A DNA stretch of 64,000 bases from a phage, in NCBI GenBank assembly GCA_016389475.1, contig GCA_016389475.1_3042.1, one strand, 5' to 3'. This document shows positions 1,576-61,876 of the stretch, one piece after another. The notes under the pieces were generated by a model. The model was not told the origin of the DNA, made no database searches, and saw only the letters and a program-made list of their open reading frames with translations. Position 1 is the stretch's first letter. Every line of letters begins with the position of its first letter. A program made the position numbers and the translations under genes.

Positions 1576-3395
1576 TACTGGCTCATCCATTCTTTACGAA
1601 GGTCAGCATTATCTCCCATGAGCATTTCAAAAAGCTCTTTCCAGTTCTCAGGAAGTTTAACAACATCATATACTGGGTTTTGAATCATCTCACGATATTC
1701 AGATTTTTCCAAAGAGCCAAGTCCCTTAATATAACGGATGCTATGTTTAGGTAGAGCATCTTTGGCACTCTCATATTCAGCGACTGTATAAAACCATTCT
1801 TGTTTTTTACCGACCTGAGCGATGATTACAGGAGTTTTGACAAAGCGAATTCTTCCTTGTTCAAACAGTTCTGGCCAATTACTAAAAAATCCGAGCAGAG
1901 AAGGATAAATGCTTCCTAAACCATCATGGTCAGCATCGGTCATAATAGCAATATTATGATAATTCAAGTTTTCAGCTTTTTCACCAAGAACTAATCCAGT
2001 GATTGCGCAAATATCAAATAGTTCTTTGTTTTTAAGCATATCAGCATATGACATACCCCAACTGTTGAGAACTTTACCACGCAATGGATAACCACCATGA
2101 AGTTCTTTATCACGAACATCAATAAGATATCCGATAGCAGAATCACCCTCAGTCAAGAAAAGAGTAGTGTCAGCATCTTTACCGCAAAGATTCGCTTTGA
2201 TATGTTTATGAACCTTAGCTTTAGAAGCCTTTTTAGCTGCTTTAGTTTCTGCTGCTTTTTCTGCTGCTAATTTACGTGCTAAAGCAGCTTCAATAATCGG
2301 CATTAAAATTGCTTCATTATTTAGAATAGCGCGTGAAATCTTTTTAGCATCAAGTTGAATATGACTACGAATTTCACCAAAAGGAGAAGTAAGTCGTTCT
2401 TTAGTTTGAGAATCAAATCGCATGTTTTTCATATCACGAACAAACATAACGATAGTCAAACATTCTTTGACACGTGCTTTAGTTACATCAATTTTGAACT
2501 TACGTTTGATTTGTGGAATAAGGTCTTCACAAATATCATCCATAACACAGTCAATGTGATGGCCACCATTCTTAGTGTGAATGTTATTCACATAAGTTAA
2601 TTGACGAAAACCATCAGGTGAACGACCAACCGCAATAGAACAATTTTCTTGTTCTTGAACAATAGCATGTTCATCATACTGCCGTGCATATTTCTTAAAA
2701 TTGCCCTGAACCTTTTTACCATTAAAAGTAAATTGAATATCAGGATAAACAACAGCAAGTGTCTGAAGACGATCTAGTGTAATGTCAAGATAAACTTGGG
2801 ACAGCTCATTAGTTTCAAATGACATAAAATCAGGAATGAAAGTAACACGAGTTCCTTTCCATTTTCCTGGAATAGTTTCCCATGATTTATTTTCCATGCC
2901 ATTTGAACAACGAACTACAATATTATTTTGACCATCGCCAGTTTCACCGACAAACATCACAGAAAAAATGTTAGTTAAACTAGAACCAACACCATTCATA
3001 CCACCGGTGACACGTTCTTTATCATCACCAAAGTTACCACCTGCTTTTGGAATAGTCCACGCAGCAACAGGACCAGGAATTTCTTCACCAGTAGGTGTTT
3101 TAACCATCGCTTGTGGAATACCGCGACCGTTATCTTCAACTGTCACCTGATTATTTTTAATGGTAACATTAATTTTATTTGCGAACTTAAATTTAGTACG
3201 AATACCTTCATCGACTGAGTTATCGATAATTTCATCAATAAGCTTAACAAGACCAGGTACATACTGAACACTTTCCCATTTACCAAACAGAAAGCGCTCA
3301 TGCATTTCATTAGCAGAAGAGCCAATGTACATGCCACTACGCTTTTTGATATGTTCAATATCGCTCAGAATTTTAATTTCATTCTTAATCATCAC
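1575..3395 (-). CDS. 39: DNA topoisomerase II large subunit, single uninterrupted ORF (606 aa)
   Basis: ORF track; MIKNEIKILSDIEHIKKRSGMYIGS N-terminus and GHKL ATPase motifs match T4 gp39; the C-terminal part that T4 encodes separately as gene 60 is fused in-frame. Confidence 0.95.
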   Translation of the reverse strand: MMIKNEIKILSDIEHIKKRSGMYIGSSANEMHERFLFGKWESVQYVPGLVKLIDEIIDNSVDEGIRTKFKFANKINVTIKNNQVTVEDNGRGIPQAMVKTPTGEEIPGPVAAWTIPKAGGNFGDDKERVTGGMNGVGSSLTNIFSVMFVGETGDGQNNIVVRCSNGMENKSWETIPGKWKGTRVTFIPDFMSFETNELSQVYLDITLDRLQTLAVVYPDIQFTFNGKKVQGNFKKYARQYDEHAIVQEQENCSIAVGRSPDGFRQLTYVNNIHTKNGGHHIDCVMDDICEDLIPQIKRKFKIDVTKARVKECLTIVMFVRDMKNMRFDSQTKERLTSPFGEIRSHIQLDAKKISRAILNNEAILMPIIEAALARKLAAEKAAETKAAKKASKAKVHKHIKANLCGKDADTTLFLTEGDSAIGYLIDVRDKELHGGYPLRGKVLNSWGMSYADMLKNKELFDICAITGLVLGEKAENLNYHNIAIMTDADHDGLGSIYPSLLGFFSNWPELFEQGRIRFVKTPVIIAQVGKKQEWFYTVAEYESAKDALPKHSIRYIKGLGSLEKSEYREMIQNPVYDVVKLPENWKELFEMLMGDNADLRKEWMSQ

Positions 3396-16560: not shown

Positions 16561-16725
16561 TTACTCTTCTTTTTCTTTAGATTCCTCTTTTTTCTTTTTA
16601 GGAATCTGTTCAGGACCTTTATTTACTACAGCACCTGACGTTGTTCCAGTAGAGATATTTTCAGGATTACCACCTGAATCTCCAGCAACCATATCTTCTT
16701 TAATAAATTCTTTATATGTTTTCAT
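16561..16725 (-). CDS. Lys/Glu-rich micro-ORF (54 aa), 61.1 position
   Basis: Hand translation MKTYKEFIKEDMVAGDSGGNPENISTGTTSGAVVNKGPEQIPKKKKEESKEKEE; fills gap exactly. Confidence 0.4.
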   Translation of the reverse strand: MKTYKEFIKEDMVAGDSGGNPENISTGTTSGAVVNKGPEQIPKKKKEESKEKEE

Positions 16726-16726
16726 A

Positions 16727-17368
16727 TTAACCTTTATTCATAAAAGCATTAAAAATTTGATCGTCAATAGAAACATTTACTTTAGACTGTTTTTCTGATG
16801 GTAATTCATATCCACATATTACAATTTTGTGATCAATATCAAAATACACAGAAGCAATATGATTAATGATGTTTTCAGTAAAGTCTAAATCAACATCAAT
16901 ATCTTTTTGACCACAGCCCAAAGGATAAATAATGCGAGTAATTCGATTATCTTTAACAAATATTCCACCGACATACTCTGTGCTGCGTTTAAAGTTTACA
17001 CGTTTCCTAAATGAAAAATATTCAGGTTCTTTATGAGCCCGACTCATAGGACACAATGAGTAGCTAGAATAAGAGATGTCAAATCCTACACCTTCAATAT
17101 GAGCCAACGCGTCATGATTAAACCAATTATAATCATATGCCAAATCCATTATATTGTAATATGTGAAAGGCACCGGATTAACATCATGTGTTGTACCTTT
17201 AAAATCTGCCCAGGCAACGATTTCGTTATCTTTAACAATTACAAAAATTGTGTCAATAAGATATCCACGGTTATTTTCATCAGGCGTTATATTATAACAT
17301 TGTGCATCAGGAAATTTACCGTATTTAAACGGTGGATTTTTGTGCATATAATAAATCATATTATTCAC
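16727..17368 (-). CDS. hypothetical protein (213 aa), 61.2 position
   Basis: ORF track. Confidence 0.55.
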   Translation of the reverse strand: MNNMIYYMHKNPPFKYGKFPDAQCYNITPDENNRGYLIDTIFVIVKDNEIVAWADFKGTTHDVNPVPFTYYNIMDLAYDYNWFNHDALAHIEGVGFDISYSSYSLCPMSRAHKEPEYFSFRKRVNFKRSTEYVGGIFVKDNRITRIIYPLGCGQKDIDVDLDFTENIINHIASVYFDIDHKIVICGYELPSEKQSKVNVSIDDQIFNAFMNKG

Positions 17369-21247: not shown

Positions 21248-22090
21248 TTAATCAACTGCTATTGGATGAATAGCATTAAACTTATGAAATGCTTCTGATT
21301 TTTCTTTACGCGAAACACACATGCGAAGAACCTTTAGTGGTTCATCTTCTTCACCCAACGATTTTCGTTTTTCAATATTAGAAGTTTTCCAACGAGCTTG
21401 CTCTGGAAACTCTCTATTGATTTGCTCAAGCGCTCTATTATGTTTAGAATTACTGCGAATTGAACTACACCCACCAGGAGCTTGTGCTTTTCCAGATACA
21501 ACCAGATATTTGAACAAGGCCAAATGCGGATAACCTTGATTAATTAAATTGAGAAATGCATACATATCTTCGCACAAATCAATTTTTCCATACCCAATTT
21601 GTTCTGTCGTAAGTTTTCCGAGGTCATACCATGTATTCGTGAATCCATATGAGTTTTCACGATAATTACCCCAAGATGAAGTAATTTTAAAAATTGGTAG
21701 GCGAGCATGACCGTGATAATACCCGCAATCCATGGCATCTTCGACGTATTGAATCAATTCATAGAACTGTTCATGAGTCAATTGATTGACTTTATCTACA
21801 CAACGACGGTCATCTCTTTTTCGCATTGAACTCATACGAATAGTAGTATCATCGTCAATCATCCAGATTCGTTGACCTGCATACATATCAGTAATTGCTT
21901 TACGAGTACCGGCAATTCCGTTTACATCATCAGGAATAGTTACAATTTTAGCTCTAGACCCATAGGCATCATAATAAGCTTTTTCTTCATGTTCACGCAC
22001 TACAATATGGGGTTCATAATCAGTCGGAAACATATCAAGGGCAGAAACTGCCCCGACACGCTGATAACTTGGAATTACGAATTGAATCAT
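21248..22090 (-). CDS. DxD-motif glycosyltransferase in the beta-gt slot (280 aa from ATG)
   Basis: ORF track (GTG start at 22096); ATG at 22090 in ATGA overlap with gene 42; IWMIDDDTTI DxD motif; much shorter than T4 beta-gt (351 aa, GT-B). Confidence 0.6.
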   Translation of the reverse strand: MIQFVIPSYQRVGAVSALDMFPTDYEPHIVVREHEEKAYYDAYGSRAKIVTIPDDVNGIAGTRKAITDMYAGQRIWMIDDDTTIRMSSMRKRDDRRCVDKVNQLTHEQFYELIQYVEDAMDCGYYHGHARLPIFKITSSWGNYRENSYGFTNTWYDLGKLTTEQIGYGKIDLCEDMYAFLNLINQGYPHLALFKYLVVSGKAQAPGGCSSIRSNSKHNRALEQINREFPEQARWKTSNIEKRKSLGEEDEPLKVLRMCVSRKEKSEAFHKFNAIHPIAVD

Positions 22091-22827
22091 TTCCACTCAC
22101 CGTTATAGTCTTTTTTCACAATATGAGTTTCGCCAGTATTCCACCAATGATCAACCAAGTAAAAATGACGAGAATATACATGAAGACTTCCGACATTCCA
22201 TATAATAGAACCTGCTTTATACTGACGAGTTGAATCGCCTGCATTCAAATCAGATACTAATTTATCTAATACGTATTTTTGCCATGCATAATCATTACGG
22301 AATCCGAAGACCACGTCATTTGAGCGCATGCTTACTACTGCATTGACTTTCTTATCACGAATCAAGTACTGTACTGTATTAGTACACATGAAATCTGACA
22401 TACCATCTTTATTGTAATCAAATTGCATGGATGGACGAGTATAAATCATGATACCACGTCGAGAATCAGGATTTTGACCAAGTTCAGCTAAACACATATC
22501 ATACTGGGCATAGTTATCTTCTGACCAAATAGCCCAACCATAATTCGAGTTAATTTCGCCTTTAGAAGATGCTACCTGCTGCCAAATCTTTGGTGTTTCA
22601 CCTGGAATATCTTTAACAAACAAACTCTTAGATTTATACCATTCAAGTTCGCGCTGAATGTATTCATCATTGAGAGCGCCAAAAATAAACGGTTCATCTG
22701 CTACAAATGATGCGCCAATAATTTCAATAGTTTTAACACCAGTTTTATCAACTACGAAATCTTTTTCCTTTAATGCAAGCCCCAAATGAAGACGGATTTC
22801 TTCAACTGTCATAGAGTCACTAATCAT
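22087..22827 (-). CDS. 42: dCMP hydroxymethylase
   Basis: ORF track 246 aa; thymidylate-synthase-like fold; length equals T4 gp42. Confidence 0.95.
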   Translation of the reverse strand: MISDSMTVEEIRLHLGLALKEKDFVVDKTGVKTIEIIGASFVADEPFIFGALNDEYIQRELEWYKSKSLFVKDIPGETPKIWQQVASSKGEINSNYGWAIWSEDNYAQYDMCLAELGQNPDSRRGIMIYTRPSMQFDYNKDGMSDFMCTNTVQYLIRDKKVNAVVSMRSNDVVFGFRNDYAWQKYVLDKLVSDLNAGDSTRQYKAGSIIWNVGSLHVYSRHFYLVDHWWNTGETHIVKKDYNGEWK

Positions 22828-59404: not shown

Positions 59405-59766
59405 TACAAACTCTCGGTGAATGTACGAGCGATAACGTCGCGCTGCTGTTCCGGAGTCAGAGAGTTAAAGCGAACTGCATAACCTGATACACGGATGGTC
59501 AGCTGCGGATATTTTTCCGGATGCTTAACTGCATCTTCCAGAGTTTCACGACGCAGAACGTTAACGTTCAGGTGTTGACCACCTTCAATTTTAACTGCAG
59601 GCTGTTGCTCAATTTCAATTTCACGGGCATGCAAACCATAGAAAATTTCTGGGTCTACAAAAGAGTCCTCTTTAAAGGTTTTAGAAACGATAATTCGTGC
59701 TTGAATACCATCTTCAAAATAAATAGTACCTTTGTGTATGCCTTCAAGAATTTGATATGCTTTCAT
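59404..59766 (-). CDS. autonomous glycyl-radical cofactor (GrcA/YfiD-like)
   Basis: ORF track 120 aa; C-terminal ...[29 protein letters not shown] carries the glycyl-radical motif and appears near-identical to E. coli GrcA from memory. Confidence 0.75.
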
Positions 59767-59773
59767 ATAAACC

Positions 59774-60103
59774 TCAATTAGAAAATAAATTTATCCAAGA
59801 TTGTTCTTTAATTAAAAACGGCTCAGAATCATATGCCATTAAACTTTGCGTAATTAATCCTTTAAAAGGTCCATCAATAAATTCCATGGTAAAATATGGA
59901 ATTTTATTCATTAGCCGTGCATTAGGAGCAGTACATAAAACTCTGCATCCTTTGAATACACCTTTTTGTAATTTGTATTGCTTGGGATAAAATTCGCTCA
60001 AAATGTTATTATTTGCTAAAATTTCAAAATGATTCACCAATTTATTTTTAATAGTTTTTGGCGAAAAATAAAGATATTCGAAAAGTTGCGTATCTGTCAT
60101 CAT
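59774..60103 (-). CDS. hypothetical protein (109 aa from ATG)
   Basis: ORF track extended upstream; ATG at 60103 in ATGA overlap with preceding stop. Confidence 0.45.
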
Positions 60104-60690
60104 TGCATTCCAATTACGAAAAACTGCGGACGAGTAATACCACCAATACAGCATTTACTATTGCAGCAATATTGCACAGTTTCAATATGAATATCGTAAA
60201 TTTTATCCATATCAGGAGATTTAACAGGCTCATCGATTATATACAAAATTCGAGAAAGCGATAAACCTCTGAACTTGCTACCTCTATTACCAACAAAACT
60301 ACGGACAGAATCAGTAAATAAACGGAATCGAATATCATCGCTAGAATAACGAGAAAATTCTTTTTTAATGCGGCCCACAGAAATTTTAGCGTAAGCTGAA
60401 GTATTAGAAAGAACAATAACTGTTCCACCATCATACAACCAATTAGCGGCAAAATTAGTTACTGCAGTTGATTTACCGGATTGTCTGCCACCATCTAAAC
60501 GAAGTGTACAATATTCTTTAAATAAATACGACGAATCAGGTACATAAAATCCACTATTACAAATTTCTTCTACTCTAGCGTCAGAATGGTGTGTAAAAGC
60601 ATTCATCAGGGATAGATAAGGACCAGTTAAAAATGTTCTCATTTTATTCTCTCTAAATTTGGGCCATTCCATGGCGCATGAATTGTCCAT
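60100..60690 (-). CDS. P-loop NTPase (196 aa; start may be ATG at 60642)
   Basis: ORF track; Walker A GGRQSGKST and Walker B ILYIIDEP; best RBS precedes internal ATG at 60642. Confidence 0.55.
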   Translation of the reverse strand: MDNSCAMEWPKFRENKMRTFLTGPYLSLMNAFTHHSDARVEEICNSGFYVPDSSYLFKEYCTLRLDGGRQSGKSTAVTNFAANWLYDGGTVIVLSNTSAYAKISVGRIKKEFSRYSSDDIRFRLFTDSVRSFVGNRGSKFRGLSLSRILYIIDEPVKSPDMDKIYDIHIETVQYCCNSKCCIGGITRPQFFVIGMQ

Positions 60691-60783
60691 TTCTGTATTT
60701 ACCCATTACCGCACTTGGGCTCGACCTTATTACAGGTTGGCGGGAATCCCTCACAGAATCATGAGGTCCAGCTTGTTCCCATA

Positions 60784-61257
60784 TTATTTGAACGATTTAA
60801 CGTACTGAATAGAACCTTTACTATTTACAAAGGCAATTTTACCATTTTTATTATACATGGTAGCAGTACGCTGATAGCCATAAGTTTGCTTACCAGATTG
60901 ATAACCAACTAATGCAAAATTATCTTCACCCATTTTATTCTGTTTAGCGCGAATGCGTTCATGACCATGTGCCATAAGAACCTTAGCATCACCAGTTACA
61001 ATGGATCGACGAGTTTTTTCATCTTCAACTGTATTAACAAAGTCGTCAAATGAATCAAATTTAGCATGAGATTTATTATACAGTTTTCCATCTACTGCAT
61101 AATTATATCCCTGTACATCCATCTCAACTTCTGTACCATCATCCAATACAGCAGTAATTTTCTGTCCTTTTTTAAATTTCAAAAGATCAGTAAAAGATTC
61201 AGCAATAATTTGAGAATTAATAGCTGCTTCAGTGATAAATTCTTGATATGTTTTCAT
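60784..61257 (-). CDS. capsid-targeted internal protein (157 aa)
   Basis: ORF track; N-terminal MKTYQEFITE resembles the T4 internal-protein capsid targeting sequence; sits in the ipII/ipIII slot upstream of e. Confidence 0.6.
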   Translation of the reverse strand: MKTYQEFITEAAINSQIIAESFTDLLKFKKGQKITAVLDDGTEVEMDVQGYNYAVDGKLYNKSHAKFDSFDDFVNTVEDEKTRRSIVTGDAKVLMAHGHERIRAKQNKMGEDNFALVGYQSGKQTYGYQRTATMYNKNGKIAFVNSKGSIQYVKSFK

Positions 61258-61301
61258 GTGTTTCCTTTAAATATTTTAATTAGTAATTTGTCTCTTCAAG
61301 C

Positions 61302-61331
61302 AACTGTGAATATACTATCACAATTCTAGGA
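61302..61331 (-). promoter_or_regulatory. T4-type early promoter (weak -10)
   Basis: gtaaac 61326-61331, -10 about TAGTAT. Confidence 0.4.
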
Positions 61332-61345
61332 GAAAGTAAACAACT

Positions 61346-61876
<531 letters not shown>

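Follow-up and report, generated by a model that had tools for sequence, protein, structure and literature searches.

The gene beside lysozyme in a T2-like Tequatrovirus encodes the precursor of internal protein Ip4, carried as a cassette bounded by leader and stop codon

Introduction

What kind of protein is encoded beside the lysozyme gene of this T4-like phage, would it travel into the host cell with the phage DNA, and what might it act on there? The locus lies in a 64,000-nucleotide stretch of phage DNA (the window), in which a minus-strand open reading frame (ORF) at 60784..61257 comprises 157 codons plus stop in the program-made ORF list and specifies a 157-aa product starting MKTYQEFITE (MKTYQEFITEAAINSQIIAES...; program translation, MKTYQEFITEAAINSQIIAESFTD...). 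An earlier note on this DNA had taken the N-terminus for the capsid-targeting sequence (CTS) of T4 internal proteins and the gene for an occupant of the ipII/ipIII slot of T-even phages, and had raised the possibility of an injected anti-defence protein. Injected internal proteins act before phage gene expression and thus set the host range with respect to nucleases that destroy incoming DNA.

Results

Identity of the gene product and extent of its family

The product matched Pfam DUF7412 (PF24183) along its full length (residues 1-157 on a 158-position profile; E 2.5e-95, 317 bits, the curated cut-off being 27 bits) and PHROG 3155, 'internal virion protein' (E 2.3e-101), and is a member of both by a full-length profile match above the curated threshold. 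A structure search of BFVD returned Q38388, 'Ip4 [Enterobacteria phage K3]', with 98% identity to the window protein; a homologue in a Salmonella phage is likewise named Ip4, and the name in the K3 UniProt entry reportedly derives from Repoila et al. 1994. Phage T2 (AP018813) has ip4 at the same place with a single substitution relative to the window, and seven records (ACG-C40, fPS-2, NiC89, ECP52, KMB39 and RefSeq duplicates) are 100% identical to the window gene in nucleotide sequence. The ORF list, the Pfam and PHROG matches, K3 Ip4 and T2 thus agree on 60784..61257 (minus strand) as the full precursor ORF. The copies in K3, T2, ACG-C40, fPS-2 and KIT03 are identical or near-identical and represent the same protein as that of the window, with no substantive difference in Ip4 between the window phage and these carriers; the phage itself is a mosaic, for which the best record is only ~96% identical over 24 kb. 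The product of the gene is accordingly the precursor of internal protein Ip4, and the phage a T2-like Tequatrovirus; Ip4 is already known and not new, and the main outcome is the confirmation of a correct annotation, in support of the interpretation given in the earlier note, rather than a new gene.

By megablast, ip4 was found in 320 phage records, with full-length conservation in at least 311, under labels that vary among hypothetical, internal virion protein and 'IpIII'. Its carriers are phages of Escherichia, Shigella, Yersinia, Citrobacter, Salmonella and Serratia. The cargo part of T4 ipIII was found in 245 records and that of ipII in 188, and Ip4 is the commonest of the three cargoes in sequenced phages. 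In the T2 record, ip4 (AP018813 4430-4903) is mislabelled 'valyl tRNA synthetase modifier', and product names are wrong or shifted across the region, grcA for example being labelled 'tail sheath monomer'.

At 90% identity this small family, restricted to T4-like phages, falls into 14-16 clusters. When 1.84 billion representatives were searched exhaustively with an HMM, only 7 matched, each an Ip4 family member or a fragment, and the family was connected to no larger one. Three of these matches are distant members (34-37% identity) that keep the length and architecture and have the leaders MNFEQFLNES and MNFKDFLNES. The most distant DUF7412 homologue (P0017) is carried by metagenomic contig ERR6050427_5810 (5322-9557), where three GIY-YIG (Seg-like) homing-endonuclease genes flank it; the surrounding region is T4-like and bordered by homologues of dNMP kinase and of vs/rI. 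The start called for P0017 is probably placed too early, a leader-like MVTFKEIYNSKNAFSLNES starting at residue 36. In phage G4507 (MK327946, H8/H9), a 1-nt indel splits ip4 into two annotated CDSs, and a 39-aa truncated product (P0020) occurs in metagenomic data; such occasional frameshifted or truncated copies fit a dispensable accessory gene. ACG-C40 carries Ip5 and Ip6 at the other internal-protein (IP) locus, and if this repertoire is common to both phages, the window phage would have no overlap with the Ip1-3 repertoire of T4.

The leader and its processing sites

Comparison with the T4 leaders translated from NC_000866 (MKTYQEFIAE in both IPII and IPIII) showed 9 of 10 residues of the Ip4 leader to be identical, and the recognition of a T4 CTS at the start of the 157-aa product therefore holds. 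In the review by L. Black, positions 4 and 7 of the leader matter for targeting and positions 8 and 10 for processing, gp21 cutting after the Glu of L/I-X-E (PMC9026906). All four of these experimentally mapped positions (Y4, F7, I8 and E10) are identical in Ip4, and the sole change, A9T, falls at a position not implicated in either. Ip4 thus has a CTS with the targeting residues 4 and 7, closed by an L/I-x-E site at which cleavage is predicted; this segment (codons 1-10, 61228..61257, minus strand) ends in the gp21-type site I-T-E↓A. GenBank X04567 annotates the corresponding residues -10 to -1 of IpII and IpIII as a removed peptide, and residues 1-10 of IPIII suffice to package foreign proteins, which are then delivered into cells (PMC3012670, PMC9026906).

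The resemblance is a matter of homology and not of chance, because a 776-nt block of T4 homology (95.6% identity) includes, over 120 nt, the T4 e-ipIII junction aligned with the window from the e stop codon through the spacer to nucleotide 32 of the ORF. The following ten codons (11-20, AAINSQIIAE; 61198..61227, minus strand) form a linker that ends in a second site, I-A-E↓S. This second motif, [I/L/M]-x-E-[S/A] at residues 18-20, is kept in nearly all Ip4 family members, the relatives at 34-37% identity included, and aligns with the true cleavage site I-T-E↓A of T4 IPI at residues 17-19. IPI begins MKTFKEFTSTTTPVSTITE↓ATLT, its cleaved tripeptide (ITE↓A) being identical to Ip4 residues 8-10, and the structure of IPI* (PDB 2jub) starts at residue 20, right after the ...STITE↓ATLT cut. 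Alignment to the IPI, IPII and IPIII leaders and inspection for L/I-x-E sites, the check suggested beforehand, hence placed the leader in register and located both I8-T9-E10↓A11 and I18-A19-E20↓S21. From family conservation and the IPI alignment, the linker is probably a second propeptide segment that would be cleaved at its end. Since the motif at residues 18-20 aligns with a real IPI cleavage site, the mature protein (Ip4*) is predicted to consist of residues 21-157 (60787..61197, minus strand; 137 aa, 15.5 kDa, pI 9.3).

A leader regex run over six frames of the 64-kb window returned only ip4 and one other ORF. The latter (16561-16725, minus strand) encodes 54 aa, MKTYKEFIKEDMVAGDSGGNPENISTGTTSGAVVNKGPEQIPKKKKEESKEKEE, with a CTS-like N-terminus identical to the Ip leader in 8 of 10 residues and an I-K-E cleavage-type motif. 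From its position, with the DNA primase gene (61) on one side and the AdfA/61.2 gene on the other, it is probably the homologue of T4 61.1; it was assigned to PHROG 1823 (unknown function), matched neither Pfam nor NCBIfam, and is annotated as an internal protein in none of the records seen. Packaging as a small peptide is conceivable, as is an origin as a relic of recombination through the leader. The directly adjoining gene (16727-17368, minus strand) strongly matches AdfA, anti-DarT factor A (PF23813, E 1.5e-136), which is T4 61.2, a known anti-defence gene.

Anatomy of the locus and of the cassette

The gene order in the window is e - ip4 - vs.8 - vs.7 - vs.6(grcA) - ... - regB - vs - tk, as against e - ipIII - ipII - denV - vs.8 at the same locus of T4. 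Gene e, the T4-type lysozyme (61346..61840, minus strand; Pfam Phage_lysozyme, and identical ACG-C40 locus annotation), is the immediate upstream neighbour of ip4 on the same strand. The assignment of ip4 to the ipII/ipIII slot is therefore right, whereas its placement upstream of lysozyme, made in the earlier note with the strand left unstated, needs reversal: ip4 is on the minus strand, transcriptionally downstream of e, and lies to the left of e only in plus-strand coordinates.

Homology to T4, which covers e, the spacer and the leader, ends at 61226, 32 nt into the ORF (blastn against T4 and Sf25), and resumes at 60784, where the last base of the ip4 stop codon coincides with the end of T4 denV; from there, 60784..59700 aligns with T4 2943..1854 at 90.5% (blastn). 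As the homology stops at the end of the leader and returns exactly at the stop codon, ip4 is a clean cassette swap bounded by these two elements, in which ~1.44 kb of T4 (ipIII cargo, ipII and denV) is replaced by 0.44 kb of Ip4 cargo. Compared with T4 (2940-3356), the denV gene (endonuclease V, pyrimidine-dimer repair), which T4 carries in the replaced segment, is absent from the e-vs.8 slot of the window, lost with the ipIII-ipII segment.

The 5' side of the cassette is a conserved module of ~90 nt before the ATG (61258..61345, minus strand), which is common to the window, T4 e-ipIII and T4 ipIII-ipII and was aligned with Sf25 as well. It consists of a stem-loop (arms at about 61318-61322 and 61305-61309) and a ribosome-binding site (AAAGGA, 61261-61270), the Shine-Dalgarno sequence AAAGGAAACAC preceding the ip4 ATG as a good ribosome-binding site; GenBank X04567 annotates the same inverted repeat and ribosome-binding site in T4. 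With this shared module, ip4 is placed between e and vs.8 in one of the two polymorphic IP loci, which adjoin either e or 57B.

The content beside e differs among T4, Sf25, T6 and S16-like phages, and the locus, described beforehand as hypervariable in T-even phages, is indeed so. In Shigella phage Sf25, one more Ip cassette, which encodes an unrelated protein of 105 aa and is likewise delimited by the leader, separates e from ip4; in T6 (MH550421, 2495-3512), e directly adjoins regB and the locus holds no Ip; and Salmonella S16-like phages have a DUF7412 gene beside e together with denV and an IpIII homologue. Leader-bounded shuffling of cassettes has reportedly been described earlier for the T-even IP loci. 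In T6, the ip genes, denV and the vs.3-vs.8 block are all missing from the e-regB locus.

On the other side of ip4, the vs.8 homologue of the window (60690-60784 and 60100-60690, minus strand) has the T4 start codon ATG changed to GTG, and a frame change ends the frame after ~33 codons; the main ORF restarts internally and comprises 196 aa, compared with 180 aa annotated in ACG-C40 and 219 aa in T4. The vs.8 protein gave weak P-loop and terminase-N-like matches. The GC-rich spacer between ip4 and vs.8 was considered as an RNA element and rejected (no Rfam match, folding z-score -0.04), being the disrupted 5' end of the T4 vs.8 coding sequence.

As for expression signals, a pattern search found TATAAATA, the T4 late-promoter consensus, upstream of e (61867..61874, minus strand) as the only exact match near the locus, and no exact late promoter directly upstream of ip4. 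The promoter upstream of e is a possible source of late read-through transcripts into ip4. The ip4 spacer contains TATAAAAA and an early-like GTTTAC...TAGTAT, and a sigma-70 scan there was not above chance.

The cargo domain

Like other Ips, Ip4* is basic, containing 22 K+R in 137 residues. Prediction by AlphaFold2 of the mature domain alone gave a pLDDT of 92.6 and a pTM of 0.87, a high confidence reached from only 15 sequences, for two beta-hairpin/sheet segments around three short helices. Within the close family (60-99% identity) 49 columns are invariant; when distant members are included in a 12-sequence alignment, the invariant residues are only G, V, K, N, A, L, Q, Y and T. We rejected an enzyme on the ground that this alignment has no invariant His, Asp, Glu or Cys column, and the pattern argues for a binding protein, as judged from conservation. 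The dN/dS ratio is 0.03-0.06 within Tequatrovirus and ~0.12 against the Salmonella-phage orthologues, and ip4 is thus under purifying selection. Although some phages carry frameshifted copies, the notion of a chance ORF or of a gene in decay, with a leader preserved solely as part of a recombination module, is effectively refuted by the selection and conservation data, namely full-length conservation in at least 311 records, this dN/dS of 0.03-0.13 also across genera, a conserved ribosome-binding site, a confidently predicted fold from so few sequences, and the retention of length and architecture at 34-37% identity.

Sequence, profile and fold searches found neither a motif nor a fold relative for the mature portion, in which no motif had been recognised beforehand either. 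A structure search gave no fold relative among enzymes, and the fold, as modelled, is an orphan. BLASTP found the mature parts of Ip1, 2, 3, 5, 6, 7, the Sf25 Ip and Ip4 to be mutually unrelated, and no homology of the Ip4 mature domain to the proven GmrSD inhibitors Ip1*, Ip2 and Ip3 was detected in sequence or fold. An apparent homology of the cargo to IPI* (BLASTP E 3e-4; hhalign 89% probability for Ip4 residues 1-48 against IPI residues 1-51) was discarded, the hhalign probability falling to 0.6% once both leaders were trimmed, which attributes the signal to the leader only. Also dismissed were a PDB sequence match to 7on6, a designed Kelch-like repeat protein, whose E of 1.9e-4 is an artefact of summing six repeats with an E above 600 each, and sub-threshold matches to the NCBIfam curli synthesis inhibitor (17.5 bits against a cut-off of 300) and to BOW99_gp33.

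Discussion

The explanation towards which we incline, if only by a little, is that Ip4 is a packaged, gp21-processed and injected binding protein, probably an inhibitor of a modification-dependent nuclease. In the proposed sequence of events, the 10-residue CTS would bind the gp22 scaffolding core, by which Ip4 is built into the prohead; gp21 would then cut after Glu10 (I-T-E↓A) and probably also after Glu20 (I-A-E↓S), leaving the compact, basic 137-residue domain in the head with the DNA; and the mature protein would be ejected into the cell with the DNA at infection, before phage gene expression. There it would act by binding, not by catalysis. Its most probable action is the stoichiometric inhibition, with narrow specificity, of a host nuclease directed at glucosyl-hydroxymethylcytosine DNA; this enzyme would belong to the GmrSD family or be another one of Type IV, outside the pairings made so far. 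The gene itself would be one interchangeable cassette of a locus at which recombination through the common leader exchanges one cargo domain for another.

The two halves of this scheme differ in strength. Packaging, processing and co-injection follow from the identity of the leader and of its functional residues and from the proven sufficiency of the leader for foreign proteins, and with the T4 precedent we consider them highly probable; the literature searched contained no proteomics or other direct evidence of Ip4 in virions. The genes for the gp22 core and the gp21 protease, which map outside the 64-kb window, are inferred to be present in this phage, as the window is that of a Tequatrovirus 95-96% identical to complete T4-like genomes. 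An anti-restriction role, argued from locus and family analogy, has close to an even chance. In T4, Ip1, Ip2 and Ip3 each specifically inhibit one GmrSD-type Type IV restriction enzyme, a different one in each case and with no cross-protection, and heterologous Ip1-3 rescued infection only against the cognate enzyme (Silas et al. 2025, PMC12373910). The claim that injected proteins of this locus are anti-restriction effectors has thereby gained a stronger precedent, all three being GmrSD inhibitors (PMC12373910). Since the mature domains have no detectable relation, the functional analogy of Ip4 to Ip1-3 is drawn from just the locus and the delivery route.

Comparison with individual internal proteins makes the same division apparent. 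T4 IPIII and IPII, inhibitors of GmrSD-ECOR17 and GmrSD-ECOR21 (PMC12373910), resemble Ip4 in their locus beside e, the 5' module with its stem-loop and ribosome-binding site, the 10-residue leader (9/10), basic character and comparable size, but their mature domains are unrelated to it, BLASTP finding the leader only. T4 IPI (IPI*; PF11634, PDB 2jub), which inhibits GmrSD-CT596, shares with Ip4 a two-part leader of ~20 residues that ends in I-x-E↓[A/S].

Outside the T4-like phages, the Dar proteins of phage P1 (DarA, DarB, Hdf and others) are capsid-packaged, injected anti-restriction proteins. They are similar to Ip4 in the general strategy of head packaging and delivery with the DNA, which for Ip4 is deduced from its leader, but belong to another phage lineage, are large, use another incorporation pathway and are directed to Type I restriction-modification systems; no relation of sequence or fold between Ip4 and the P1 Dar proteins was seen.

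Which enzyme Ip4 might inhibit is narrowed by published data. In the experiments of Silas et al., expression of ip4-10 did not reproducibly inhibit any of a panel of GmrSD variants (PMC12373910 Supplementary Fig. 9); of the 15 groups represented in this panel only 8 showed activity, and GmrSD diversity is very large (PMC12373910). This negative screen is the one functional study of Ip4 in the literature searched, whose coverage did not extend to Repoila et al. 1994 and Rifat et al. 2008. T2, which lacks Ip2 and Ip3, is restricted by the targets of these two, GmrSD-ECOR17 and the leaky GmrSD-ECOR21 (PMC12373910), and because T2 carries Ip4, neither enzyme is the target of Ip4. From the panel and from the restriction of T2, the target, if it is a Type IV enzyme, would be outside the tested set.

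The same screen has been counted in favour of two other readings, both of which we regard as unlikely and to a similar degree. Ip4 might be an injected effector with a non-Type IV target, such as an early defence (an abortive-infection sensor, another nuclease or a toxin-antitoxin system), phage or prophage exclusion, or a host takeover process. Besides the negative result with the GmrSD variants tested (PMC12373910), this accords with the injection by T4 of Alt, an ADP-ribosyltransferase with a takeover function, which indicates that injected cargo need not be anti-restriction (PMC9026906), and with the lack of relation between the folds of Ip4 and Ip1*; furthermore, the frequency of Ip4 as the commonest occupant of the locus (320 versus 245 and 188 records) in phages of many host genera suggests a broadly distributed target. 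However, no positive evidence points to any particular alternative target, all three Ips of known function from the two IP loci act on GmrSD-type enzymes, and the panel sampled just 15 groups, 8 of them active, from a very large diversity (PMC12373910).

Alternatively, Ip4 might be mainly a structural or physical component of the head, pictured as a basic, lysine-rich protein at hundreds of copies that neutralises DNA phosphate charge and aids head-core assembly or DNA packing and ejection, with no specific host target. The basic mature protein (pI 9.3, 22 K+R/137) is like T4 Ip2 and Ip3 in this respect, in T4, internal proteins touch DNA phosphates through their lysines, and loss of IPIII by mutation leads to aberrant head assembly (PMC3012670, PMC9026906); the GmrSD panel screen was negative (PMC12373910), and the high conservation of Ip4 (49 invariant columns, dN/dS about 0.1) is unlike the rapid diversification expected of an arms-race inhibitor. 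On the other hand, viable phages have unrelated cargo domains (T4, Sf25) or no Ip (T6) at the locus, and frameshifted ip4 copies exist. Ip1-3 are equally basic and yet each proved to have a specific nuclease target (PMC12373910), and a 137-residue globular domain, confidently folded in prediction and with a conserved surface-type motif set, exceeds what charge neutralisation needs.

Returning to the preferred reading of an injected binding protein, Ip4 stands out now that Ip1-3 are each paired with a GmrSD-type enzyme, being found in a larger number of sequenced phages than ipII or ipIII, the classic T2 among them. We entertain, quite tentatively and as a rather doubtful extension, that it is an injected inhibitor of a previously unseen fold, whose target is outside the tested GmrSD variants and belongs to another class of modification-dependent nuclease or to a non-nuclease early defence. 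Such a target might be suited to DNA of the T2 type (alpha-glucosyl or gentiobiosyl, hmC in part unglucosylated) and not of the T4 type. If this is true, the target would be a widespread and so far unrecognised barrier to Tequatrovirus infection in Enterobacteria, Ip4 being the commonest cargo at the locus. To name it would be to identify another common restriction barrier and would help to predict or engineer the host range of therapeutic T4-like phages, and the leader-bounded ip cassette illustrates how new cargo plugs into a delivery system.

The window also contains a minus-strand gene (21248-22096) for a 282-aa glycosyltransferase with a Pfam match to TET-associated glycosyltransferase (TAGT), beside the gene for dCMP hydroxymethylase (gene 42, 22087-22827). 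The beta-glucosyltransferase of T4 has 351 aa. The enzyme of the window is not of the T4 size, suggesting hmC glucosylation of the T2/T6 type and not of the T4 type, which could bear on the restriction enzymes that the Ips of the window phage must counter.
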